Notes: generated by a model from the sequence alone, not told the origin. Shown: positions 1 to 13,590, counted from the stretch's first letter. The stretch: DNA of 64,000 bases from Candidatus Multivoradales bacterium (GCA_965248925.1 CBDFLE010000005.1:416001-480000), one strand, 5' to 3'. Made by a program: numbers and translations.

Positions 1-1
1 G

Positions 2-1000
2 GTGGCGCGGATCAAGCGCGATCTCGGCCAGCGCTCGAACGTCGGGGCGATGCTCACCCAGCGCGATCCCAGTGGCGGCGATAGCGACCGCAGTTGGGGT
101 ATCGATCTCAATCTCAACCCCACCAAACGCCTCAAGCTGACCGCTTTTGCCGCCGGCACTGAGGGCAACGAAACCCAGGATACCGCCGCCGGCGCCAGTG
201 CTCGCTGGCAGAGTTCGGTGTGGGAAGTGAGCGCCGCTGCCAAGGAGATCGGTGACGACTTCGCACCCGCCATGGGTTTTGTATCCCGCCGCGGCGTGCG
301 GCGTTACGACACCTATGTCAAGTGGGCGCCGCGGACCGCGGGAAAAGGTGCGATCGAGAGCTTTTTTTTCGACTTGAGAACCAACATGTTCACCGACTTG
401 GAGGGTCGGATCGAAAGCCGGACCATCGACTATAACCCCTTTGGCATTCGCTGGAAGCAGGGGCATTTCTTTACCTTCTTCGGCAATCTTCGCCGCGAAC
501 GCCTGACCGAGCCGTTCGAGATTTCCGACGGCGTGTTGATCGCGCCGGGGGACTATCACTTCGAGGATTTCGGCGCCTTCTTCTCCTCCGACGGCAGCCG
601 CCCGCTGTCGATCGAAACCTCTGCTTTTGGCGGTAGCTTCTACGACGGCGACCGCCTGTCAGGACAGTTCACCCTGCTATTCCGGCCCAGCAAGCATCTA
701 TTCTCCGAGACCAGCTGGTCCTACAACGACATTGATTTGCCGGCCGGTGAGTTTTCAACCGAGTTGATCCGTCAGCGCATCTCGGTGCCGATCAACCCTG
801 ATCTGCAGATCAACGCCTTCGTCCAATACAGTGATGCCCAGGACCTCACCGCCCTCAATCTGCGCCTGCGTTGGATCTACCGCCCCGGCTCCGACCTCTT
901 CGTGGTCTACAACCAGACCTGGGATGCTCCCGGCCTCAGCCAGCTGAGCCCCCGCGATCGGCAGCTGTCCGTCAAGTGGACCTATCTGCTGCAGCGCTGA
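2..1000 (+). CDS. DUF5916-like outer-membrane beta-barrel protein, C-terminal part (5' end lies outside the window)
   Basis: ORF open from the window edge; amphipathic beta-strand pattern, 'DFAPAMGFVSR', 'NLRLRWIYRPGSDLFVVYN' and C-terminal 'VKWTYL' resemble DUF5916/CBM9-associated proteins. Confidence 0.6.
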   Translation: MARIKRDLGQRSNVGAMLTQRDPSGGDSDRSWGIDLNLNPTKRLKLTAFAAGTEGNETQDTAAGASARWQSSVWEVSAAAKEIGDDFAPAMGFVSRRGVRRYDTYVKWAPRTAGKGAIESFFFDLRTNMFTDLEGRIESRTIDYNPFGIRWKQGHFFTFFGNLRRERLTEPFEISDGVLIAPGDYHFEDFGAFFSSDGSRPLSIETSAFGGSFYDGDRLSGQFTLLFRPSKHLFSETSWSYNDIDLPAGEFSTELIRQRISVPINPDLQINAFVQYSDAQDLTALNLRLRWIYRPGSDLFVVYNQTWDAPGLSQLSPRDRQLSVKWTYLLQR

Positions 1001-1136
1001 GCGATTGATTCCTACAGCCGAAGGGCGACTCTCTGGCGGGTTTCTTCTCATCGAGTGGAACACAATCCTCTTCCATCTCGTCATTTAGGACAGAGGGGAA
1101 GTACTGTCCGTTCGCCGCTGAGGAGACCTGCTGTCA

Positions 1137-2474
1137 ATGACTCTAGAGACTGCCGATTCCGCTAGCTTCTTCTGGCGCCTGCTGCTGATCGCATCCTTGA
1201 TTGCCGCCATCGTGTCGCTTTGGACGACCGGTGCCGGCTTGAGTCGTTATGTGGCAATACCGCTGGCCTGGGCGCTGGCGGCGGCGGTGCAGCTGGGGCT
1301 GTTTGGCCTAGCATGGTTGATCGGTGTAGGCCATTCTCGCCAGCGGCTGTGGATCTCCTTACTCTACTTCGCGACCATGCTGTTCTCAGTCACCTTCAGC
1401 TACGTCACCTTGCAGAGCGAGCTCACCGAGCGTATCCGGCCGGCCGAGGCTCAGCGGCGGTTGCTCGATGTCAGCCGCCAAGTGGTATCCGATCTCGCGC
1501 ACCAGCTCACCGCCGCCAGCCAGCAGCGCGACGATCTGGAGCTGCGTCTGGCGGGCTGGCTTGAGATGGAGCGCGGCAATGGCTGGGCAACCAGCACCTG
1601 CGAGGCCGAGGACCACTGTTATCTGGCGGGCGTCTGCCAGCGTATTCGCCAGCGCATCGGCGTCTGGGAGGGCTCTTCCGGCCGGACCTACCGCGAAGGC
1701 CCCGGTGAAGCGCTGATCTACGGCGCCCTCGAAGCTGAGCTTGGTAGCCTGCGCCAGCTCGGCGAGCGGCTGGCTGAGTATCGCCTCGGAGTGGCCACCG
1801 AGGACGGTGTGTTGGCGGCGGGGATCGACAATTGGCAGCGCTTGGCGCGGCTCGATCTGCTCCTCGGTCGCTTGCCGAGCGCCGACCTCGAGGCGGTCAC
1901 TTGCCAGGCTGCGGCGCTCCCCAGCCTGCCGTCCTACAGCGACCACGCCCGCGACGCCGCGTCCAGTGACGAGCAACCGGTCTATGCCTGGCTCGACCTG
2001 CAACGCTTGTTGAGCTCTGCCGAGCCCCTCGGTCGCGAGGACTATCCGACGCTCTTCGCTCTGGCGCTGGCTCTGTTCATCGACCTATTCGTGCTCGCCG
2101 TGGCCCTCGGTGCTTCCGAGGTCGGCCGTCGGGGTCGCGGGGTGGCCATGTTGGGTGCCGCACCGAAAGGCTGGCAAGAAGCAGTCGTGGACGATGTCGA
2201 CGGCTGGCTTGGGGCTTCCCTGGAGCGTGGAGAGCAGGGCAGCGACAGTCGCCAGCAGCTGCTCAGCAGCTTGCTCGACGCGATCTCATTCGACCGCCGT
2301 GGTCAGGCACACTTGCTACCCGAGGATCCGTCCCAACACCGCTTCGCCCGGCTACTCGTCGGCTGCCGGGCGGCGACGCCGCGGGCCTTCATACGCCTCG
2401 GTCGGGTGGGCCAGCGCTTCGACCTAGAAGAATGGGTGCTGCCCGCTCTGGCCCAGGCGGCCCAGCGCAGCTGA
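1137..2474 (+). CDS. Hypothetical membrane protein (3 N-terminal TM helices, Cys-containing helical/coiled-coil region, further TM helix)
   Basis: 445-aa ORF, GAGGAG upstream, host-like codon usage; hydrophobic segments at aa ~10-90 and ~305-325. Confidence 0.7.
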   Translation: MTLETADSASFFWRLLLIASLIAAIVSLWTTGAGLSRYVAIPLAWALAAAVQLGLFGLAWLIGVGHSRQRLWISLLYFATMLFSVTFSYVTLQSELTERIRPAEAQRRLLDVSRQVVSDLAHQLTAASQQRDDLELRLAGWLEMERGNGWATSTCEAEDHCYLAGVCQRIRQRIGVWEGSSGRTYREGPGEALIYGALEAELGSLRQLGERLAEYRLGVATEDGVLAAGIDNWQRLARLDLLLGRLPSADLEAVTCQAAALPSLPSYSDHARDAASSDEQPVYAWLDLQRLLSSAEPLGREDYPTLFALALALFIDLFVLAVALGASEVGRRGRGVAMLGAAPKGWQEAVVDDVDGWLGASLERGEQGSDSRQQLLSSLLDAISFDRRGQAHLLPEDPSQHRFARLLVGCRAATPRAFIRLGRVGQRFDLEEWVLPALAQAAQRS

Positions 2475-2541
2475 GCAAGAGCCGGCACCAACCGCCGCTG
2501 GTGGCGTTAGCCTTGCCACAGGGCTGGCGAGTAGTTCCCGT

Positions 2542-2581
2542 TTGACAACTGGCCCCCGACTGGCTATGGTCACTTGGCCAT
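2542..2581 (+). promoter_or_regulatory. Sigma70-like promoter with overlapping palindromic operator of the TA operon
   Basis: TTGACA (2542-2547), 17-nt spacer, TATGGT (2565-2570); imperfect palindrome ATGGTCA-CT-TGGCCAT (2566-2581) overlaps the -10, as expected for type II TA autorepression. Confidence 0.6.
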
Positions 2582-2897
2582 GACTATGAAAATCCCAAAC
2601 AAAGAGACCCTCAAAAATTCGCCGCCTGACTCGCGCCACACGGTTGCGACTGGTTGTAACGACGCCTATCCCCCTCTCGATCCACGGATAGCGGCCGGTG
2701 AGTTCAAAGCCAAGTGCTTGAGCATGATCGACGAGGTTGCCGAGACCGGCGCCGCCTACGTCATCACCAAGCGCGGCAAACCGATGGCGCGGCTGGTGCC
2801 CCTGGCTGAGCAGGAGCCCGCGGACCTGCTGGGCAGTGTGCTGTTCGAGGACGATCTTGTGTCGCCGATCGGTGAGCCCTGGGATGCAGAACAGTGA
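2574..2897 (+). CDS. Type II TA antitoxin, Phd/YefM family
   Basis: 'AGEFKAKCLSMIDEV...YVITKRGKPMARLVP' motif; GTGA overlap with the PIN gene; true start may lie downstream. Confidence 0.88.
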   Translation: MAMTMKIPNKETLKNSPPDSRHTVATGCNDAYPPLDPRIAAGEFKAKCLSMIDEVAETGAAYVITKRGKPMARLVPLAEQEPADLLGSVLFEDDLVSPIGEPWDAEQ

Positions 2898-3280
2898 TTG
2901 TGCTCGACACCCACGCCTGGATCTGGTGGACCTCGGCCCCCGACCGGCTGTCGAATGGCGCCCGCCGGGCGATTGATGAGGCTACCGCTCTCGGGGTGTC
3001 GGTGATCAGCTGCTGGGAGGTGGCCATGCTGGTCACCAAAGGGCGCTTGGGACTCGATCGTGGGGTTGATCTGTGGGTGCGCCAAGCCTTGGCCCGGCCG
3101 CGGGTGCGGCTGCTCGAGATTACGCCCAAGATCGCCGTTCAAGCCGCGGAGTTGAAAGGCAAAATCCCGGGCGACCCGGCCGATCGATTGATCACCGCCA
3201 CCTCGCTGGCGCGGCGCGCAGCGCTGATCACCCGCGACCGGATCTTGACAGACTACTCAGAGTTGAGGACGGTTTGGTAA
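2894..3280 (+). CDS. vapC: Type II TA toxin, PIN-domain VapC family
   Basis: 'MIVLDTHAWIWW', 'SVISCWEVAML', 'GDPADRLITAT', 'LITRD' PIN motifs. Confidence 0.9.
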   Translation: MIVLDTHAWIWWTSAPDRLSNGARRAIDEATALGVSVISCWEVAMLVTKGRLGLDRGVDLWVRQALARPRVRLLEITPKIAVQAAELKGKIPGDPADRLITATSLARRAALITRDRILTDYSELRTVW

Positions 3281-3356
3281 GGCTAGGGCTTGTCAGGGGC
3301 TAGCAAGTCATTTCGTACGGTCCGGTGATCGACGAAAACCTAGCTTCTCAGCCGAT

Positions 3357-6300
3357 TCAGAACAGCCGGGCGATGGCTGTCAGCACCTTTTCTGGGTTCA
3401 GCCGGTCCGGTAGATCTTCGGCTTCGTAGAGGGCGTAACCTTCAACGAAGCGAAACCGTTCGAGTGCTTCGGGATCACCCATGACGTAGCCCTCGGAGGT
3501 CCAGGCCAGGTGATGGCCTTTGCGGTCCGACCAGAGGTGAGCCACCGGCTGGAGCAGCCTATCTTCGGCCGAGAACTCGGAAACAGCATACAGGCTCAAC
3601 ACACCATCTCTCCGGCCAATCACTAGTGCCCGACTGCTGGGGAGCCACGCTAGCGACGAAGGCGTGCTATCGAGCAGAGCGTCGGCCACCCTTCGGCCGG
3701 TCGTCGGGTTCCATAGTTTAACGGTTTTGTCAGAGGAGGCAGAAGCGAGGGTCTTGCCGTCCGGGCTGAAAGCAACGGCGCGGACTGGCCGTTTGTGTTG
3801 TTCGAGTGAGTGGATGAGCTTTGCGCGGCTTGGGTTCCATAGTTTGACGGTGTTGTCATGGGATGCAGAAGCGAGGGTCTTGCCGTCCGGGCTGAAAGCA
3901 ACGGCGGTGACCCAACCGTTGTGTTGTTCGAGTGAGTGGATGAGCTTTGCGCGGCTTGGGTTCCATAGTTTGACGGTGTTGTCATGGGATGCAGAAGCGA
4001 GGGTCTTGCCGTCCGGGCTGAAAGCAACGGCGCGGACCCAATCGTTGTGTTGTTCGAGTGAGCGGATGAGCTTTGCGCGGCTTGGGTTCCATAGTTTAAC
4101 GGTGTTGTCATGGGATGCAGAAGCGAGGGTCTTGCCGTCCGGGCTGAAAGCAACGGCGGTGACCCAACCGTTGTGTTGTTCGAGTGAGTGGATGAGCTTT
4201 GCGCGGTTTGGGTTCCATAGTTTGACGGTGTTGTCATGGGAGGCAGAAGCGAGGGTCTTGCCGTCCGGGCTGAAAGCAACGGCGGTGACTGGCCGTTTGT
4301 GTTGTTCGAGTGAGTGGATGAGCTTTGCGCGGCTTGGGTTCCATAGTTTGACGGTGTTGTCATGGGATGCAGAAGCGAGGGTCTTGCCGTCCGGGCTGAA
4401 AGCAACGGCGGTGACCCAACCGTTGTGTTGTTCGAGTGAGTGGATGAGCTTTGCGCGGCTTGGGTTCCATAGTTTGACGGTGTTGTCATTGGATGCAGAA
4501 GCGAGGGTCTTACCGTCCGGGCTGAAAGCAACGGCGGTGACCCAACCGTTGTGTTGTTCGAGTGAGCGGATGAGCTTTGCGCGGCTTGGGTTCCATAGTT
4601 TAACGGTTTTGTCATCGGAGGCTGAAGCGAGGGTTTTGCCGTCCGGGCTGAAAGCAACGGCGGTGACTGGCCGTTTGTGTTGTTCGAGTGAGTGGATGAG
4701 CTTTGCGCGACTTGGGTTCCATAGTCTAACGGTTTTGTCATTGGATGCAGAAGCGAGGGTCTTGCCGTCCGGGCTGAAAGCAACGGCGGTGACCCAACCG
4801 TTGTGTTGTTCGAGTGAGTGGATGAGCTTTGCGAGGCTTGGGTTCCATAGTTTGACGGTGTTGTCGTGGGATGCAGAAGCGAGGGTCTTGCCGTCCGGGC
4901 TGAAAGCAACGGCGGTGACTGGCCGTTTGTGTTGTTCGAGTGAGTGGATGAGCTTTGCGCGGCTTGGGTTCCATAGTTTGACGGTGTTGTCATGGGATGC
5001 AGAAGCGAGGGTCTTGCCGTCCGGGCTGAAAGCAACGGCGGTGACTGGCCGTTTGTGTTGTTCGAGTGAGTGGATGAGCTTTGCGCGGCTTGGGTTCCAT
5101 AGTTTGACGGTGTTGTCATTGGAGGCTGAAGCGAGGGTCTTTCCGTCCGGGCTGAATGCAAGTGACTTAACGGAGCCGCGATGTGCGGTGAGGCTGCTGA
5201 GCAGTGTGCCGGCGAGGGTATCCCAGAGGAGGATGGAACCCTCGGCTCCTGCGCTCGCCAGGATAGGCTCCTGAGGGTGGTAGGCCAATGCAAGGACTCT
5301 TCCTTGGTGGCCGTCTTTCAGCAGCGGCCGAAGGCCGCCAAAATGGCCGGTGCGCGCGGCCGGTAGGCCGCGCGCACCGAGTAGGGCGGTACCCAAGGTG
5401 CGCCTGGGCTCAAATCGCGCATCGCTCAGATCCGCTCCGGAGAACCGAGCGAAGCCAAGGTCGGCGGCCCGCAGGTCCGCACGCCGCAGATCCGCATGCC
5501 GCAGATCGGCGTGATCGAGACTTGCTCCGCCGAGGTTGGCGTCCGAGAGGTCGGCGCCTCGCAGGTCGGCCGAACTCAGGTCCGCCGAAGAAAGATTGGC
5601 ATCTAGCTTGGCACCTTGTAGCTGCGCCTGGCGCAAGTTGGCCTGCTTGAGGGATGCTTGAATCAAGTAGGCACCGCGCAGATCGGCGCCCTGCAAATCG
5701 CCTTGCTCCAGTCGCATTGGCCTGGAACCCATCGCTGCTTGGTGGAGGGCCGCCATCTCCCGTTGCACCGCCGCGAGATCGATCTCCTCTTCAGCCGCCC
5801 GGTCGCGAGGAGTGTCCGCTGGCAGGGCGCGGTCGCGGGCCAAAAAGTAGAGCAAGCGCAGGGCGTTCTCGCTGACTCGTTGCCGGTAGTCGCCCGCCAG
5901 CACCGCGCCGGCGAGTTTGGGGATGTTCTCGGCCTCCGGCCAACGCAAGAGGAAGAGCGCCACCTCGCGGGTCAGGGGTTTCAGATCGAGCACCGTGGCA
6001 TCGTCCTGCGCCAAGCCCTCCCGCACGGTGACCGCGACGAAATACTCCAGAAAAGAACGATGGATGAAGCGGTAATAGCCGCGGCTGTCGCGATGCAGGA
6101 AGAGGGCGGTGCGCACCTCGTAGTCGACCCTTTCCTTGTCCAGGTAGGAGAGTTCGCGTTTGACCCGATAGAAGTCGAGCGCCTTTTCGGCCAGCTCCTC
6201 GTAGTGAACTTCCTGCCGCGAGGCGTCCCACAGCATGCGCGCCAGGTAGTGGACCAGGGCGACCTTATGCTCTCGGGTGAGGGTCAGGCGCAGGTCATTA

Positions 6301-8498
6301 TGCTCGAACCACTTCTCGCAGTAGGCCTCGTAGAGGTCGGCGATCGATAGCGGAGCACCCTGGGCTCGCTCGACCGCCACCGCCAACGATTTGACGATCA
6401 GCTTGAGCAGGAAAGGTCGCTTGGCGAGATCGTCGAGATTGTAGGCGGCCTGGATCGTCCCCTTCAGCTCTTGCCAGTCGCCTGGCGGCGGTACCGCCTT
6501 TTGCAAGTAGACGTCGATCTGCGCCTGCTCGAACTCGCGCAGGTAGGCGATCTGGGCGCCGGGGCGTTCCCGCAAGATCTCGTAGAGGGCGGTAGCGCCA
6601 GCGGTGGAGCGCTCGGCGCCCGCTACTCCCAGCTGCTGAACCTCCTCGGGCTGGTCGCGAAAGTAGTGGGTCCGGCAGGTGAGAATCACTTTCGCCTCAC
6701 CCTCGACGGCGCGCAACATCTGGCGCAGGTTCTCGGCGTAGTGGCCGGGCTCGGTGTAAGCAATGGTCTCGTCGAAACCATCGAAGATCAGCACCAAATG
6801 GCCGGCGCGGTTCAAGAACAGCATTGCTTGTGGGTTGAACGACCGGGTAGAGAGTCGCTGGAAGTGATGGTTCAGCAGATTCTCGAGAGTCACCGTAGTC
6901 GAGCCGCTCTCGCGCAGGTCGATTAGCACCGGCGCTCGCTGGTCAGGATCCTGCTGGTGAGCCAGTGCCAGCAAACAGGCCAGGCGCTGGCAGAAGCTGC
7001 TCTTGCCGACCCCGAAGTCACCCAGCAGGGTCAAGACGCCGGAGGCCGGTTCCTCAAGCCAGGCGAGGACGCTCTCGGTCAGCCCGCGTGGCTTGACCAC
7101 CTCCCCTGGCCTGATATCTCGCTGCCAGACCGCCTCCTGCTCGACATAGAGCCGTTCGAGGTCGGTGCCCTGGAAATCGCGGATAGCTTGGTCGAGAGTG
7201 GGGGAGAGGTCGACCAGTGAACGCCGTAGCTCCTTGAAGCTCTTGAGCTCGACGAACAGCTCTTCAGCTACCGCACGTGCGTTGTTGGCGAACCCCTCAC
7301 GTGCGACCAAGATGGCTTGGTAGCGGCGCTTATCGTGCCGGCTGGCGGTCTCCACCTTGCGCGAGAATTTCACGACGTCGTCGATTCCCACCTTGCGCTT
7401 AGTGTCTTTGCACTCCACTAGAGCGTAGGTGGTGATCGGTCCCTGCAACTCCAAGCGCACGTCGAACTGCCGATCCAAGGTCTTGTCGTCCACCTCCGCC
7501 CGGTAGCCGAGCAGGCGGAACAGTTCGGCGACTTTTTCCTCGAAGCTCTTGGCGCGCTGAAGAATCTCTCGCCGGTCGTCCGCGGTGAGGCCGGGACGAA
7601 GCTGCCTTTCATCGCGGTCTTCATCGGCCTCAGCTAAGACTGAGGCACGCTCGCGCGTGAGCATGTCGAGGAGCGGTTGGTATTGGTCTCGGAGGTCTTC
7701 AGCGCTGCCCCCATCCAGGCTGGGTATCGCATCGGTCAGCAGCAGCGGAGGGTGCAGTGGTAGCTGCAGATTGGGTCCGAGGCCCGCCGCTCTCAGCTGG
7801 TCCAACTTGCTGTCCTTCAGTGCTTCGAGGTGCTTGTCTCCCGCCACCTCGGGAACCATGTTGGCCAGCAGGAATACCTTGATCTCGCCGTGCTTGCGGC
7901 GCTGCGCCTTGATCGCCGCGTGAGCTTGCCTGATTCCCTGGAGGTTCTGCTCATTGAGGTTGAAGACGATCACTACCAGGTCGGGGAGGATCAGCGTACT
8001 GATTGCGCCAAGGTCGGTAAGACCGGTTCGGGCGTCGATCAGCAAGTACTCGTAGCCGAGGTCGTCCAACAGGTGCTGCGCGATGCGCAGGAAGAAGGCG
8101 CCGCCCATCTCCCCATCTGCCAACAAGGGTTGCCAATCGATGCCGGCAAAGCGCTCGCGGTATCCCTGGTCGAAGGGGCAGGGGAGTAGAAAGTCGAGCC
8201 TGCCCCGGTTCTTGGCCAAGCCATCGGGTAGGTCCAGGCTGACGATTGAGCTTTTCAGCAAATCGAAAGGCACTTCCCGGCATTTCCCTGCCACGAACGC
8301 TTGGATAAGGTCTAGGGTGCCGCTCTCGAGCTTCTTGTCGACCTTGCGAAGTGCCGGGATACGCTGCATTCCGGGCGCTTCGAGATCCAGGTCCCAAACC
8401 AGGACTGAGTGGCCGCGTCCAGCCAGCTGAGCCGCCGTTTCGACCAGCGAGTGGGTGCGGCCCACGCCGCCTTTGAACGAGTAGAAAGTGACGATCAT
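3357..8498 (-). CDS. NLR-like multidomain protein: KGGVGR-variant ParA/MinD ATPase + Mrr-like PD-(D/E)xK nuclease + NACHT NTPase + pentapeptide repeats + 14 WD40 repeats
   Basis: N-term 'TFYSFKGGVGRT...DLDLEAPG...LIDARTG'; 'FEEKVAELFRLLGY...FDVRLE...LVECKD' (Mrr_cat-like); Walker A 'GDFGVGKS' and NACHT Walker B 'LIFDGFDE'; 'YRFIHRSFLEYF'; A(D/N)Lxx pentapeptides; 12 copies of 'AFSPDGKTLASAS' plus 2 degenerate WD40 repeats. Confidence 0.92.
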   Translation of the reverse strand: MIVTFYSFKGGVGRTHSLVETAAQLAGRGHSVLVWDLDLEAPGMQRIPALRKVDKKLESGTLDLIQAFVAGKCREVPFDLLKSSIVSLDLPDGLAKNRGRLDFLLPCPFDQGYRERFAGIDWQPLLADGEMGGAFFLRIAQHLLDDLGYEYLLIDARTGLTDLGAISTLILPDLVVIVFNLNEQNLQGIRQAHAAIKAQRRKHGEIKVFLLANMVPEVAGDKHLEALKDSKLDQLRAAGLGPNLQLPLHPPLLLTDAIPSLDGGSAEDLRDQYQPLLDMLTRERASVLAEADEDRDERQLRPGLTADDRREILQRAKSFEEKVAELFRLLGYRAEVDDKTLDRQFDVRLELQGPITTYALVECKDTKRKVGIDDVVKFSRKVETASRHDKRRYQAILVAREGFANNARAVAEELFVELKSFKELRRSLVDLSPTLDQAIRDFQGTDLERLYVEQEAVWQRDIRPGEVVKPRGLTESVLAWLEEPASGVLTLLGDFGVGKSSFCQRLACLLALAHQQDPDQRAPVLIDLRESGSTTVTLENLLNHHFQRLSTRSFNPQAMLFLNRAGHLVLIFDGFDETIAYTEPGHYAENLRQMLRAVEGEAKVILTCRTHYFRDQPEEVQQLGVAGAERSTAGATALYEILRERPGAQIAYLREFEQAQIDVYLQKAVPPPGDWQELKGTIQAAYNLDDLAKRPFLLKLIVKSLAVAVERAQGAPLSIADLYEAYCEKWFEHNDLRLTLTREHKVALVHYLARMLWDASRQEVHYEELAEKALDFYRVKRELSYLDKERVDYEVRTALFLHRDSRGYYRFIHRSFLEYFVAVTVREGLAQDDATVLDLKPLTREVALFLLRWPEAENIPKLAGAVLAGDYRQRVSENALRLLYFLARDRALPADTPRDRAAEEEIDLAAVQREMAALHQAAMGSRPMRLEQGDLQGADLRGAYLIQASLKQANLRQAQLQGAKLDANLSSADLSSADLRGADLSDANLGGASLDHADLRHADLRRADLRAADLGFARFSGADLSDARFEPRRTLGTALLGARGLPAARTGHFGGLRPLLKDGHQGRVLALAYHPQEPILASAGAEGSILLWDTLAGTLLSSLTAHRGSVKSLAFSPDGKTLASASNDNTVKLWNPSRAKLIHSLEQHKRPVTAVAFSPDGKTLASASHDNTVKLWNPSRAKLIHSLEQHKRPVTAVAFSPDGKTLASASHDNTVKLWNPSLAKLIHSLEQHNGWVTAVAFSPDGKTLASASNDKTVRLWNPSRAKLIHSLEQHKRPVTAVAFSPDGKTLASASDDKTVKLWNPSRAKLIRSLEQHNGWVTAVAFSPDGKTLASASNDNTVKLWNPSRAKLIHSLEQHNGWVTAVAFSPDGKTLASASHDNTVKLWNPSRAKLIHSLEQHKRPVTAVAFSPDGKTLASASHDNTVKLWNPNRAKLIHSLEQHNGWVTAVAFSPDGKTLASASHDNTVKLWNPSRAKLIRSLEQHNDWVRAVAFSPDGKTLASASHDNTVKLWNPSRAKLIHSLEQHNGWVTAVAFSPDGKTLASASHDNTVKLWNPSRAKLIHSLEQHKRPVRAVAFSPDGKTLASASSDKTVKLWNPTTGRRVADALLDSTPSSLAWLPSSRALVIGRRDGVLSLYAVSEFSAEDRLLQPVAHLWSDRKGHHLAWTSEGYVMGDPEALERFRFVEGYALYEAEDLPDRLNPEKVLTAIARLF
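3706..5156. repeat. Tandem array of ~11.5 near-identical 126-bp units encoding WD40 repeats
   Basis: 'gggttccatagt' recurs at 3706, 3832, 3958, ... every 126 nt; units differ by only a few nucleotides. Confidence 0.98.
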
Positions 8499-9349
8499 GC
8501 GGCTTTGGCGGTGTTAGACCAAGCCTGGCTCAGCGGCTTTTCAGGTGACAGGTTGCGAAGACGGTCATCATCGTCTTTGGCTTCGGCTGCTGCTACCACC
8601 CGCCGGTCGGAATTGCTCGGCGAGGCGGCCGTGTCGCGACTACAGATCGCGGTGGCCAATTGACTCGCCACCCAATCAGAGGGTGCGCCAAGCACTCGCA
8701 GTTCGCTTGCGACTTGTTGAGAGTTGTTGAGAGCCTTCGGCGAGTGCAGTAATTCCACCAAGTGCTCGACCCACGAAGGGCGGAAGCGCTCTTCGGCGAT
8801 CTCTCGCCCCTCCGGCCCCAATTCAATCTCCACCGTCCGGCCGACTCGTCTGCGAAGAATCAAATCGCCTTCTTCCAGCGTCCGCAGCAGATGGGAGAAG
8901 TTGGAGTCGGAGATACCCACTCGTTTCCGCAGGAGGGCGCGTTGGACAGGCCCATCTGCCGCCACCAGAATGCTCAGAATCTTCTCTCCGTGGCCAGAGG
9001 TGCCGCGCAGAAGGGTGTCGGTGAAGACCGGGTCAGAGCGCCGAGCTCCTTCGGTCAACAATTCGCAGTAGCCGTGCCAGGCGCCGTGGATGACGGGATC
9101 CAGGCCGCGAAGGACTTCTCCGACTTTGGAACTCAGCAGGCGAGCGAGCTGAAGAGCCTCGTCGAGTGCTTGGGCCCGAGTACCGACCTTGAGGAGCCAA
9201 AGCGCGCGCCCGATCAGCAGGCCATCGAGGGCATCGACCCGCTCACGGCGAGGATCGGCGACGAGCGCTTCGAAATCACCTCGAACCTCTGCGAAAGGAA
9301 CCTCTTGTAGGCCCGTAAGATCCAAACTCGGAAGAGAAGAATTCTGCAT
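8495..9349 (-). CDS. Winged helix-turn-helix (MarR/ArsR-like) domain protein with uncharacterised N-terminal helical region
   Basis: 'EKILSILVAADGPVQRALLRKRVGISDSNFSHLLRTLEEGDLILRRRVGRTVEIELGPEG'; stop overlaps the NLR start (ATGA); GGAG upstream. Confidence 0.75.
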   Translation of the reverse strand: MQNSSLPSLDLTGLQEVPFAEVRGDFEALVADPRRERVDALDGLLIGRALWLLKVGTRAQALDEALQLARLLSSKVGEVLRGLDPVIHGAWHGYCELLTEGARRSDPVFTDTLLRGTSGHGEKILSILVAADGPVQRALLRKRVGISDSNFSHLLRTLEEGDLILRRRVGRTVEIELGPEGREIAEERFRPSWVEHLVELLHSPKALNNSQQVASELRVLGAPSDWVASQLATAICSRDTAASPSNSDRRVVAAAEAKDDDDRLRNLSPEKPLSQAWSNTAKAA

Positions 9350-9463
9350 GGGTGCTCCAATCCGATGAGCAGCAGGGAGTAGCCGCTTGAAGAAAGCGGC
9401 AAGAGTCTGGTGATAATACTTGAATCCACTTTCAATTGTCTAGGGGACGGCAAGCACAGTCGA

Positions 9464-10948
9464 TCAGCGCAAGGCGAAGTAGAGGTAGCGCTCGGTGCGT
9501 TCGACGGTGGTCGAGCTGCCCCGCGGGGCAGTCAAGTCGGTCACCTTCTCCCTCCGCCCGGAGGGTCGATGATCGACTTCGGACCGCCGCTCCGAGCCCA
9601 ACCGGATAAAGCTCGATTGGTCCTTGTGCGCTTGCTTGGCGCCCTTACCTGTGGTTGCGAACCAGCGGTTGCAGACGAAGCTGCTCACCCACCTCTGTCG
9701 CCAGTACTGGCGGGCGGCCTCTCGATGTGCGCTGGTTGTCGGGCTGAGCGATGGCACTAGAAAGATGGTGCCGTGGCATTCGTTGAGGGAATTTCGGAGC
9801 GTGTCGTGAAACAGATCCAAACAGATCAGCGGTACCAGGTTGCCCAGTGGCGATTCGAGCACTGAGATGACATGACCTACATCCACTCTCTCGCCGATCT
9901 GGCCATCTGGGCGTTGGTGGATGAAATTGGTGAGTTTGCGATGGCGGTGCTGCTCTCTGCCATCAGGTCCGAGCAGGATGGCTTCGTTGAGGTCATTGTC
10001 CTTCTCAGATTGTGAGCGGTGGCAAGTACCGGCTAGGATCAGAAGGGGCCAGTTTGAGGACGGCGTCCCGGCAAGGTCTCGTTGGATGGCCGTGAGGGTC
10101 GCCGGGGGTATGGAAAGTTCCGGCAGGATCAAGAAGGTCGCTTCAAGCTGGCGGGCGATGCCGATCGCCTCCAGGGCCTCGGCGGTCAGATCATCTTCTT
10201 GCTCGACCTCTGCTAGACGAATCGGGTTAAAGCCGCCAGGCTTGGGGAGCGCTTCGGTCAAGCGGGCTCCGGTGTAGGTGATGTCCGTAGTGAAGGGCCA
10301 GAGTAGTACTGAGAAGTGCTTTCTTTCCCATTCTCTGAGCATCCGCAGATGTAGCTCAGGTGTTGCCCAAGCTCGTCGCCCCTGGCTGCTTCGGCCTTCG
10401 ATCCGCCGACCACGTATAGGTGCCGTCGGCACCGCCATGTGGAATGAGCAGTAAGGAAAGAGTGACAGGGCGTCGCCCTGCTTGACTGAAGGCGGATTTG
10501 AGCGGGGATTTTGGAGCAAGTGATCTGAAATCCAGTTATTTCGCGTCTTGAGCAGGAACGGGGCACCCTCCACCCCGGGGAGTTCCAAGCTGCCAAGAGC
10601 GCGCGGATGCTCTTGCCTCAGGTCCCTGTCGAGCCTCTTGAGCCAGCGCAGGGCCAGCAGGTCGAACTGGGTAGAGTCGGTGAGCAGGCCGCGAAGCTCA
10701 GAACTTGCTTTGGCGGCGTGATTTGGACAAGGGCCAGGGTGGCCGTACGGCTTGAGGGAGTGGGGCTCTTCCTCGAGTTCCCGGAGGTGGTTTTCCGTCT
10801 CGGCAAGCCCGCTGCGGCCGAAGAAATCCCACAGCAAGATGAAGACGCTGGCCGCGGTTGGCCTGGGAAGTTGATCGATCTGTCGCAGGAGTATTCGGCG
10901 AAACATACCAGGCAGCTTGAAGAGAAGCATAAAGGCCAAGTAGGGCAA
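9464..10948 (-). CDS. Carbon-nitrogen hydrolase (nitrilase-fold) protein with long N-terminal extension
   Basis: Catalytic triad motifs 'LILPELSIP' (E), 'HRHRKL' (K), 'PLICLD' (C), plus 'NEAILLGPDG' and 'FLVPSLS'; start uncertain (TTG 10948 or ATG 10930). Confidence 0.78.
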   Translation of the reverse strand: MPYLAFMLLFKLPGMFRRILLRQIDQLPRPTAASVFILLWDFFGRSGLAETENHLRELEEEPHSLKPYGHPGPCPNHAAKASSELRGLLTDSTQFDLLALRWLKRLDRDLRQEHPRALGSLELPGVEGAPFLLKTRNNWISDHLLQNPRSNPPSVKQGDALSLFPYCSFHMAVPTAPIRGRRIEGRSSQGRRAWATPELHLRMLREWERKHFSVLLWPFTTDITYTGARLTEALPKPGGFNPIRLAEVEQEDDLTAEALEAIGIARQLEATFLILPELSIPPATLTAIQRDLAGTPSSNWPLLILAGTCHRSQSEKDNDLNEAILLGPDGREQHRHRKLTNFIHQRPDGQIGERVDVGHVISVLESPLGNLVPLICLDLFHDTLRNSLNECHGTIFLVPSLSPTTSAHREAARQYWRQRWVSSFVCNRWFATTGKGAKQAHKDQSSFIRLGSERRSEVDHRPSGRREKVTDLTAPRGSSTTVERTERYLYFALR

Positions 10949-11052
10949 GCCCTATCAAATGGCTCAAAAGCAAGAAGAAAGCGCGAGGTTGTATCTTAGC
11001 AAATTCTTGGCAACTTACCGTTTTACCCTGCCTGCCCTAGCCCTCGTCTCCC

Positions 11053-13590
<2,538 letters not shown>

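Follow-up and report, generated by a model that had tools for sequence, protein, structure and literature searches.

The 64,000-nucleotide (nt) stretch of DNA analysed here, termed the window, originates from Candidatus Multivoradales bacterium (GCA_965248925.1, CBDFLE010000005.1:416001-480000) and harbors a cassette of three genes that encode a nitrilase-fold (C-N hydrolase) protein, a winged helix-turn-helix (wHTH) protein and a large multidomain protein of the NOD-like receptor (NLR) type. The cassette was first noticed in a reading of the bare sequence, referred to below as the original prediction, which placed three co-oriented genes between leuS and a toxin-antitoxin (TA) pair; they were found there, all on the minus strand, and are composed as follows.

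9464-10948, minus strand: nitrilase-fold (C-N hydrolase) open reading frame (ORF), 494 codons, predicted toxin/effector (ORF call, translation)
9350-9463, minus strand: spacer of 114 nt that separates the nitrilase gene from the wHTH gene (sequence reading)
8495-9349, minus strand: wHTH gene, 284 amino acids (aa), predicted antitoxin/repressor (translation, Pfam/NCBIfam)
3357-8498, minus strand: ParA-like/Mrr/NACHT/pentapeptide/WD40 gene, 1713 aa, predicted sensor-switch with its own nuclease (translation, Pfam/NCBIfam)
7917-8495, minus strand: ParA/MinD-like domain, aa 2-194 (NF047398)
7221-7550, minus strand: Mrr-type restriction-endonuclease domain, aa 317-426 (Mrr_cat)
6630-7034, minus strand: NACHT NTPase core, aa 489-623 (Pfam NACHT)
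5364-5780, minus strand: pentapeptide-repeat region, aa ~907-1045 (Pfam Pentapeptide, NCBIfam pentapeptide models)
3579-5351, minus strand: WD40 beta-propeller region, 13 repeats (Pfam WD40)

The nitrilase gene stops at 9464 and the wHTH gene starts with the ATG at 9349, leaving 114 nt where about 115 had been estimated, while the wHTH stop overlaps the start of the 1713-aa gene in the sequence ATGA at 8495-8498, just as had been read from the sequence.

The first gene product is a divergent member of the nitrilase superfamily by fold, in which the Glu-Lys-Cys catalytic triad is intact. Its aa 254-404 are matched by Pfam CN_hydrolase (PF00795) with an E-value of 4e-8, and the triad residues E277, K338 and C376, already recognized in the original prediction, are invariant among 29 aligned homologues. 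The AlphaFold2 (AF2) model was obtained with a mean predicted local distance difference test (pLDDT) score of 89.1 and a predicted template-modelling (pTM) score of 0.90, and the closest structure retrieved with it by Foldseek was the Nit2-type omega-amidase 4hg3 (E 4e-11, 16% identity). The catalytic part is preceded by a conserved, family-specific N-terminal extension of ~215 aa, which consists of six helices (the first ~120 residues are helical) and further elements; a search of the ESM Atlas with this N-terminal part gave a best score of 0.82 to unnamed clusters and offered no lead. Judged from homologue alignments and the database gene call, the ATG at 10930 or 10906 is a likelier start than the TTG at 10948. 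When the family profile was compared with 1.84 billion cluster representatives, 4029 matches were obtained at E<=1e-3, 1809 at <=1e-10 and 300 at <=1e-30, the top ones being mostly 430-500 aa long. In addition, the PADLOC models of nitrilases associated with reverse transcriptases (RT) matched the nitrilase part weakly (E 4e-4).

Two relatives of this protein deserve separate mention. In one locus of a same-family genome (L018 5606-6742, G008:C48) the nitrilase is broken, the alignment with homologues breaking off near residue 285 and the C-terminal portion matching in a separate piece, and the wHTH and ParA-Mrr-NACHT genes look intact beside it, so that L018 may be a decaying cassette. A second and very divergent nitrilase paralogue is present in the genome under study (L048 7330-9021, G000:C6:3864329-3866020) as a 563-aa ORF that is recovered by the profile at E 1e-27 with no Pfam match, shows a GC content at third codon positions (GC3) of 0.60 against 0.72-0.82 in its neighbours and adjoins a GAF-PAS histidine kinase; it was checked for the other two genes of the trio and stands alone.

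The wHTH domain of the second protein (aa 122-185) was matched by Pfam DUF7343/HTH_34 and by an ArsR-like NCBIfam model. Its AF2 model (pLDDT 85.9) comprises a helical N-terminal domain at aa 19-116 and a MarR/ArsR-like winged helix at aa 120-177; more helices and a disordered tail make up the C-terminus. A profile comparison with the PDB led to the MepR/MarR repressors (E 9e-8), and a Foldseek search with the model gave nothing at E<=0.001 and weak, generic ArsR/MarR folds beyond that threshold. A homotypic adaptor domain shared by the nitrilase and the wHTH protein was also considered, and this idea was dropped because the two profiles showed no similarity in hhalign (probability 0.2%). On the opposite strand of the wHTH gene, an ORF of 182 codons (8762-9310, plus strand, GC3 0.76) was favoured by a crude gene caller; since the minus-strand wHTH protein is conserved across loci, the antisense ORF is regarded as a high-GC artefact.

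The spacer ahead of the wHTH gene contains a promoter-like site, TAGACA at 9442-9437 and TATTAT at 9418-9413 separated by 18 nt, which is followed by the inverted repeat GCCGCTT-N5-AAGCGGC at 9400-9382. The promoter scan returned 3 sites in the region versus 1.4 +/- 1.3 in shuffled sequences, which is weak evidence. The inverted repeat is a candidate operator, and the spacer possibly acts as a separate promoter/operator for the wHTH-NLR pair.

The third protein begins with a ParA-like domain that was assigned to the 'KGGVGR-motif variant' model NF047398 (E 3.8e-34, 118.7 bits versus a cut-off of 90). Its P-loop carries Arg at the position of the Walker A Lys, and the sequence also displays DLDLEAPG and D-x-RTG. 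In 19 of 19 aligned ParA-like domains the motifs F-YS-KGGVGR, D-x-D-L-E-A-P and D-x-R-T-G are invariant, the G of DLDLEAPG being replaced by S in some of them and its E, A and P being retained in all. Because of this invariance, the site looks like a conserved variant nucleotide-binding site rather than a decayed one. A complex prediction for the ParA-like domain with wHTH residues 1-240 returned a score of 0.00, which speaks neither for nor against binding.

Downstream of the ParA-like domain, the nuclease domain was matched better by Mrr_cat (E 8e-11) than by the inactive NA-iREase1 model (5e-7), and the NACHT domain (Pfam E 1.7e-10) contains the Walker A motif GDFGVGKS, the Walker B motif LIFDGFDE and TCRT. 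Across nine orthologues of the NACHT type, one of which lies on a contig of 42% guanine-cytosine (GC) content, D...E-C-K, GDFGxGK[ST], FDGFDE and TCRT are all invariant, which bears out the earlier statement that the NACHT Walker A/B and the D..ECK nuclease motif are kept. The C-terminal half is built from pentapeptide repeats (Pfam E 2.5e-25) and WD40 repeats (Pfam E 7e-173, 13 stretches). At the DNA level the WD40 region contains a tandem array at 3706-5161 with a period of 126 nt, 11.6 copies, 93% matches and no indels in Tandem Repeats Finder (TRF), and the resulting 42-aa units are near-identical, with differences clustered at positions 11, 17-19 (KRP / NGW / NDW), 21, 37 and 39.

Proteins with the KGGVGR motif occur outside the trio as well. 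In the same genome a second one of ~730-800 aa (L044 7780-10185, G000:C6:648780-651185; NF047398, 131 bits) has no other Pfam domain and a 161-aa gene upstream; it was checked for the trio, and no nitrilase is nearby. On plasmids, homologues were found in Massilia NZ_CP051687.1 (L117 4434-6854) and Sinorhizobium NZ_CP133151.1 (L116 4667-7193), each with a small gene 2-4 nt upstream. One of these small genes is annotated as an MqsA-family HTH antitoxin, while the gene that precedes the other plasmid homologue is hypothetical, this homologue itself being annotated as TIR domain-containing and lying in TIR-rich surroundings. Having a small partner gene directly next to it seems to be a general theme for ParA genes of this type.

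The recurrence of the trio was evaluated in 61 loci, which were scanned with hidden Markov models (HMMs) built from our own alignments and among which 46 gave a family-level nitrilase match (E<1e-25). A wHTH gene comes next on the same strand in 39 of the 41 family-level loci with >=700 nt downstream; the two exceptions are L028, where the HMM missed a wHTH gene that tblastn found, and L075, where a ParA gene follows with no detectable wHTH gene. Where >=400 nt lie beyond the wHTH gene, a ParA-like gene follows in 21 of 31 loci. A control is built into the same scan, as neither a wHTH nor a ParA-like neighbour was found at any of the nine weak-match (ordinary-nitrilase) loci with room for one. 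Moreover, over the 13 loci that have all three proteins, their pairwise identities are correlated with r = 0.91-0.95, a value reached in 0 of 2000 permutations; this is what co-inheritance predicts, with a contribution from shared host ancestry. The nitrilase, wHTH and ParA-like genes are therefore inherited together in that order, with an association far beyond chance, and the nitrilase-wHTH pair is the tightest link of the cassette. The adjacency of homologues, which had been proposed as a check on the idea of a functional unit, was thereby established.

The cassette is spread sporadically. Among 41 related genomes, this one counted, nitrilase matches at E<=1e-3 were present in 6 and wHTH matches in 5, and G006, G008 and G012, three genomes of the same family, together have five further loci where the two genes are neighbours. 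The weak nitrilase matches in G038 and G039 are ordinary nitrilases, the one in G038 having been checked and found to be a plain 272-aa protein; the family-level nitrilase is present in 4 of the 24 same-family genomes and 0 of the 17 others of the order. In a sample of 401 genomes of the phylum, with four candidates scored per genome, two matched at E<=1e-15, namely this genome and an ordinary 272-aa nitrilase, a result that shows rarity and not absence. A scan of species-representative genomes contributed 9 loci from Acidobacteriota metagenome-assembled genomes together with one Rokubacteria genome, and a metagenome scan contributed 48 loci of a more distant nitrilase subgroup.

Comparison of the third genes revealed which of their parts is constant. 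A Mrr-NACHT-pentapeptide(-WD40) architecture was assigned by Pfam at the locus itself, L018 and L071, Mrr and NACHT segments were detected by tblastn in L023, L024, L026, L027, L028 and L031, and in L073 and L078 the contig ends after Mrr. Elsewhere the ParA-like domain is followed by TPR and caspase (L055), TPR and CHAT (L021), TPR and TPR-S (L020 and L064), TPR only (L053, L059 and L065) or an FGE-sulfatase domain (L061). Accordingly, it is the N-terminal KGGVGR ParA-like domain that the third genes have in common, and the NACHT module belongs to a set of C-termini that replace one another. The original prediction of an NLR with an amidase effector and a dedicated regulator is hence upheld as far as a conserved three-gene unit of immune type is concerned, and has to be revised in that the defining partner is the ParA-like domain and not the NLR. 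As third proteins with TPR-S or FGE-sulfatase carry no other recognisable effector, the nitrilase becomes the constant effector candidate; and as the nitrilase-wHTH pair occurs without ParA or NLR in 10 of 31 loci, it fits a TA-like unit better than an effector with an NLR regulator. The third gene may also be exchanged altogether: in L019 (8098-9372) and L060 (9570-10844) a 424-aa gene, which has neither a Pfam match nor a ParA-like domain and may represent a replacement third component, overlaps the stop of a longer wHTH ORF (~366 aa) with a MarR_2 match.

The surroundings of the cassette in the window are listed below.

11053-13590, minus strand: leuS (ORF call)
2894-3280, plus strand: PIN-domain toxin gene, overlapping the antitoxin gene (Pfam)
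2574-2897, plus strand: Phd/YefM-type antitoxin gene (Pfam)
1137-2474: membrane protein of 445 aa with no Pfam match, in the insertion described below
2-1000: last 332 codons of a DUF5916/CBM9 protein of 782 aa, in the same insertion

The TA pair had been taken for a VapBC-type one; its toxin is a PIN-domain protein, and its antitoxin is of the Phd/YefM type. Five same-family genomes share the gene order on the other side of leuS, and in three of these five (G001, G004 and G005) no more than ~60 nt separate leuS from the Sir2-family gene that comes next. The corresponding gene of the genome under study (C5:413809-414663, Pfam SIR2) is 12.4 kb away from leuS, and the cassette lies in the interval. 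The original prediction had asked whether relatives lack the block at leuS; since G001, G004 and G005 do, the block is an insertion and not a core, syntenic segment of the lineage, and it corresponds to G000:C5:414664-427052, that is, window 1-11052 plus 1.3 kb before the window. At the borders of the insertion neither a tRNA nor an integrase was found, and the only direct repeat was a low-complexity 10-mer. Four DNA sequencing runs from one study contain the window's stretch, with no RNA run among those listed.

The flanking genes differ in every genome locus and include BNR/sortilin, an M14 peptidase with TIR-WD40, LprI, an acyl-CoA dehydrogenase, an MFS transporter and FG-GAP, and the contigs that carry the nitrilase family range in GC from 0.41 to 0.73. 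The cassette thus moves horizontally between genomic contexts. Defence genes adjoin some of the loci, though not the majority. On the metagenome contig L078 (538-6361) the genes of a type III-A CRISPR-Cas system (Cas10 palm, Csm2 and two RAMPs) stand directly upstream of a nitrilase-wHTH-ParA-Mrr cassette; L051 has an AAA_15/AAA_21 ATPase as a neighbour, L024 has a TIR-WD40 protein, and the present locus has the Phd/PIN pair. A search of 72,556 plasmid records gave no nitrilase match at E<=1e-8, and no relative of either nitrilase alignment was recovered from viral contigs.

Judging from domain content, the repertoire of the cassette (NACHT, Mrr, WD40, caspase, CHAT, TPR-S and FGE-sulfatase) is that of conflict and immune systems. 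Taken together with the conserved gene order and the exchange of C-termini, the locus is probably a TA-ParA ternary conflict system of the C-N hydrolase subtype with swapped sensor/effector C-termini. TA-ParA ternary 'apoptosis' systems were predicted computationally on 22 Oct 2026 by Li, Burroughs & Aravind, who, according to the main text of the preprint, envisage a toxin kept in check by its antitoxin up to the moment when the sensor causes ParA to switch, a STAND module turning this into a two-step, NTP-dependent cascade (bioRxiv 10.64898/2026.10.19.760177).

A mechanism for the present cassette can be outlined along these lines. At rest, the wHTH protein would repress the operon through the inverted repeat at 9382-9400 and/or hold the nitrilase inactive in the manner of a type II antitoxin. 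The WD40 blades, near-identical apart from a few variable positions, might bind a ligand that comes from the invader or arises during infection, upon which the NACHT domain would oligomerise on NTP binding and gather the N-terminal ParA-like domains, which would act as a second nucleotide-dependent dimerisation switch. This switch could rearrange the nitrilase-wHTH complex and free the nitrilase, which would then hydrolyse an essential non-peptide C-N bond, perhaps in a nucleotide, an NAD-type amide or a similar metabolite. The Mrr nuclease would cut DNA alongside, and the infected cell would go dormant or die. The full two-step, two-effector trigger, in which the WD40 ligand acts through NACHT on a KGGVGR switch that strips the wHTH protein from the nitrilase while Mrr fires in parallel, and in which the substrate is an essential C-N metabolite or a nucleic-acid base linkage, is put forward only tentatively and with distinctly less confidence than the class assignment itself.

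Several points weigh against reading the locus as a TA-ParA system. MarR-type regulators usually answer small ligands, and the wHTH protein could be purely regulatory. The putative toxin is large (~480 aa) and is encoded upstream of the putative antitoxin across a 114-nt gap with a promoter-like site, and because of this site the nitrilase may be transcribed apart from the wHTH and NLR genes. Ten of the 31 loci with room have no ParA gene after the wHTH gene (L019, L029, L030, L051, L060, L062, L063, L066, L067, L068); in L051 a TPR/TPR-S ORF that runs off the contig was found upstream of the nitrilase. The locus counts overstate independence because near-duplicates (L019/L060/L062 and L067/L068/L072) are among them. 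The flanking genes of the six genome loci are mostly housekeeping and not defence genes, and PADLOC assigned no known system to the cassette, giving partial matches only. Finally, the TA-ParA function is a purely computational proposal, here and in the main text of the preprint (10.64898/2026.10.19.760177).

Among the competing explanations, the one that survives best, which is that of the original prediction, regards the NACHT-Mrr protein as a complete immune system comparable to a bNACHT/Avs protein, with the nitrilase as an accessory effector or modulator, the wHTH protein as the transcription factor of the operon, and neither a TA relationship nor a special role for ParA. Such a view would account for a large protein that holds all parts of a self-sufficient sensor-NTPase-nuclease with intact motifs, and for a MarR/ArsR-like regulator whose gene is preceded by a promoter-like site and an inverted repeat. 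It is nevertheless unlikely in the light of the comparison of loci, where TPR-caspase, TPR-CHAT, TPR-S or FGE-sulfatase replace NACHT while ParA, wHTH and nitrilase stay, where the nitrilase-wHTH pair occurs without any NLR in 10 of 31 cases, and where the ParA-like motifs are invariant.

A considerably less probable explanation is a ligand circuit, in which the nitrilase, instead of being a toxin, makes or destroys a small molecule (an acid formed from an amide or nitrile) that is sensed by the wHTH protein and tunes the ParA-sensor gene, or else a regulated catabolic amidase. Small ligands are commonly bound by MarR/ArsR regulators, the nearest structures of the nitrilase are Nit2-type metabolic omega-amidases, and a promoter-like spacer separates the two genes. 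However, the identity to Nit2 is a mere 16%, the ~215-aa extension is specific to the family, ordinary nitrilases have no wHTH or ParA neighbours (0/9), and the spread is sporadic (4/24 same-family genomes, 0/17 other genomes of the order) with varied insertion sites, none of which agrees with a metabolic operon.

The notion that the ParA-like and wHTH genes make up a degenerate partition or addiction module belonging to a mobile element, with the nitrilase as cargo, is very improbable, for the resemblance of the cassette to a partition locus (ParA with a small DNA-binding partner, a place within a 12.4-kb insertion, plasmid KGGVGR homologues adjoining a small HTH gene) is outweighed by the Walker A position, where Arg stands instead of Lys throughout the 19 sequences, by the fusion of the ParA domain to NACHT, caspase, CHAT or sensor repeats, by the lack of an integrase, tRNA or flanking direct repeat at the island borders, and by the absence of the nitrilase from the 72,556 plasmid records and the viral contigs searched.

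ParA/MinD-type NTPases are the textbook switches of segregation and positioning. That such NTPases might serve as immune or suicide triggers was proposed, by computation, in October 2026 in the main text of the preprint (10.64898/2026.10.19.760177). The locus joins three questions, namely how STAND/NLR proteins relay their signal, possibly via a second NTP switch, what nitrilase effectors hydrolyse during abortive infection, and how recognition is diversified by near-identical WD40 repeats in bacteria. Material for tests is at hand: the family-level loci number 46, the catalytic residues are defined, and some natural variants have no ParA gene or possess other sensors. Should the two-step trigger hold true, the ParA-less nitrilase-wHTH pairs would constitute a new type II TA family with an amidase toxin, and a first experimental handle would be gained on ParA-switch immunity and on the targets of nitrilase effectors including that of DRT1.

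Known systems other than TA-ParA resemble the cassette only in part. From ParABS it departs in that the canonical KGGxGK[ST] is absent, the Lys being Arg in all members, and in that the ParA-like domain is fused to immune-type modules; no ParB was found. A classical type II TA pair consists of two small genes transcribed together, the antitoxin binding the toxin and repressing its own operon. The nitrilase-wHTH pair is conserved and also occurs alone, but its proteins are large (~480 and 284 aa), the putative toxin comes first and a spacer of 114 nt intervenes. The WD40 repeats of fungal NLRs of the HET-E/NWD type are highly conserved internally. The near-identical 42-aa WD40 units here, with variation at few positions, resemble them, but the cassette is bacterial and carries another effector set.

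A nitrilase domain serves as the abortive-infection effector in DRT1, a class 3 UG RT, and its substrate, too, is described as unknown in the passages of the article that deal with it (PMC13275509). The cassette is like DRT1 in having a nitrilase-superfamily domain as lethal effector, a role that is predicted here, and unlike it in that the nitrilase forms a separate protein with an N-terminal extension of its own and that no RT domain was found by Pfam in any of the three proteins. Antiviral STAND proteins consist, as outlined in the relevant part of the source (10.64898/2026.01.04.697583), of an effector such as a Mrr-type restriction endonuclease, a NACHT NTPase and a sensor made of repeats, among which WD40 propellers occur. 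The same arrangement as in bNACHT/Avs was observed here, with a Mrr effector, a NACHT domain with Walker A/B and a C-terminal repeat sensor, whereas the additional N-terminal ParA-like domain and the two obligately linked upstream genes set the cassette apart. In PADLOC, the 1713-aa protein matched no NLR/Avs model at E<=0.01, the models obtained being HEAT-ARM_XIII (WD40 region), PDC-M28B (P-loop), ZorD (Mrr) and PDC-S02.

The fusion of a MinD/ParA-like domain to STAND NTPases was described by Kaur et al. in 2020, in the available text of which the domain is called inactive and the word 'nitrilase' has 0 occurrences (PMC7159879); Kaur et al. 2021 mention neither the MinD/ParA-STAND fusion nor a nitrilase. 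With these VMAP/peptide-processing conflict systems the cassette has in common, as far as that text goes, the ParA/MinD-STAND fusion as well as TPR-S, FGE-sulfatase, caspase, pentapeptide and NACHT modules. It differs in having no vWA-MoxR pair and no peptide-processing genes, and the motifs of its ParA-like domain are invariant, in contrast to the inactivity assigned there.

The closest correspondence is with the TA-ParA systems, whose first subtype is given in the main text of the preprint as a C-N hydrolase toxin, an HTH antitoxin and a ParA fused to TPR or NACHT-beta-propeller, the ParA belonging to the ConB2 assemblage, which has Arg where the second Lys of Walker A would stand and shows a PG motif downstream of sensor-1 (10.64898/2026.10.19.760177). 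The C-N hydrolase gene, the HTH gene, the Arg-for-Lys ParA and the conserved gene order all recur here. In particular, KGGVGR was found in 19/19 sequences with NF047398 above its cut-off, and the PG motif is provided by DLDLEAPG, 'sensor-1' being mapped to DxD after the corresponding passage of the preprint. The C-N hydrolase gene is recognized by PF00795, the triad and the fold obtained with AF2/Foldseek, with toxicity predicted; an adjacent HTH gene is present here and in 39/41 loci, with the antitoxin role predicted; and ParA is joined to a variable C-terminal sensor, either TPR or NACHT with a beta-propeller. Because every definable feature of the class is present, the locus is best assigned to the TA-ParA C-N hydrolase systems, a kind already described, and the claim that this combination had no name or description was not sustained, since it matches that subtype (10.64898/2026.10.19.760177). 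A literature search under the wording of nitrilase had found no description of the trio, for which the preprint writes 'C-N hydrolase' and not 'nitrilase'.

On the other hand, the main text of the preprint makes no mention of a Mrr nuclease within the NACHT module as a second effector, of the ~215-aa N-terminal extension of the nitrilase, of caspase, CHAT and FGE-sulfatase on the ParA of C-N hydrolase cassettes, or of frequent nitrilase-wHTH pairs without ParA. The present locus and its relatives would add to the TA-ParA picture a nuclease as second effector, the nitrilase N-terminal extension, stand-alone nitrilase-wHTH pairs and a homogenised WD40 array.

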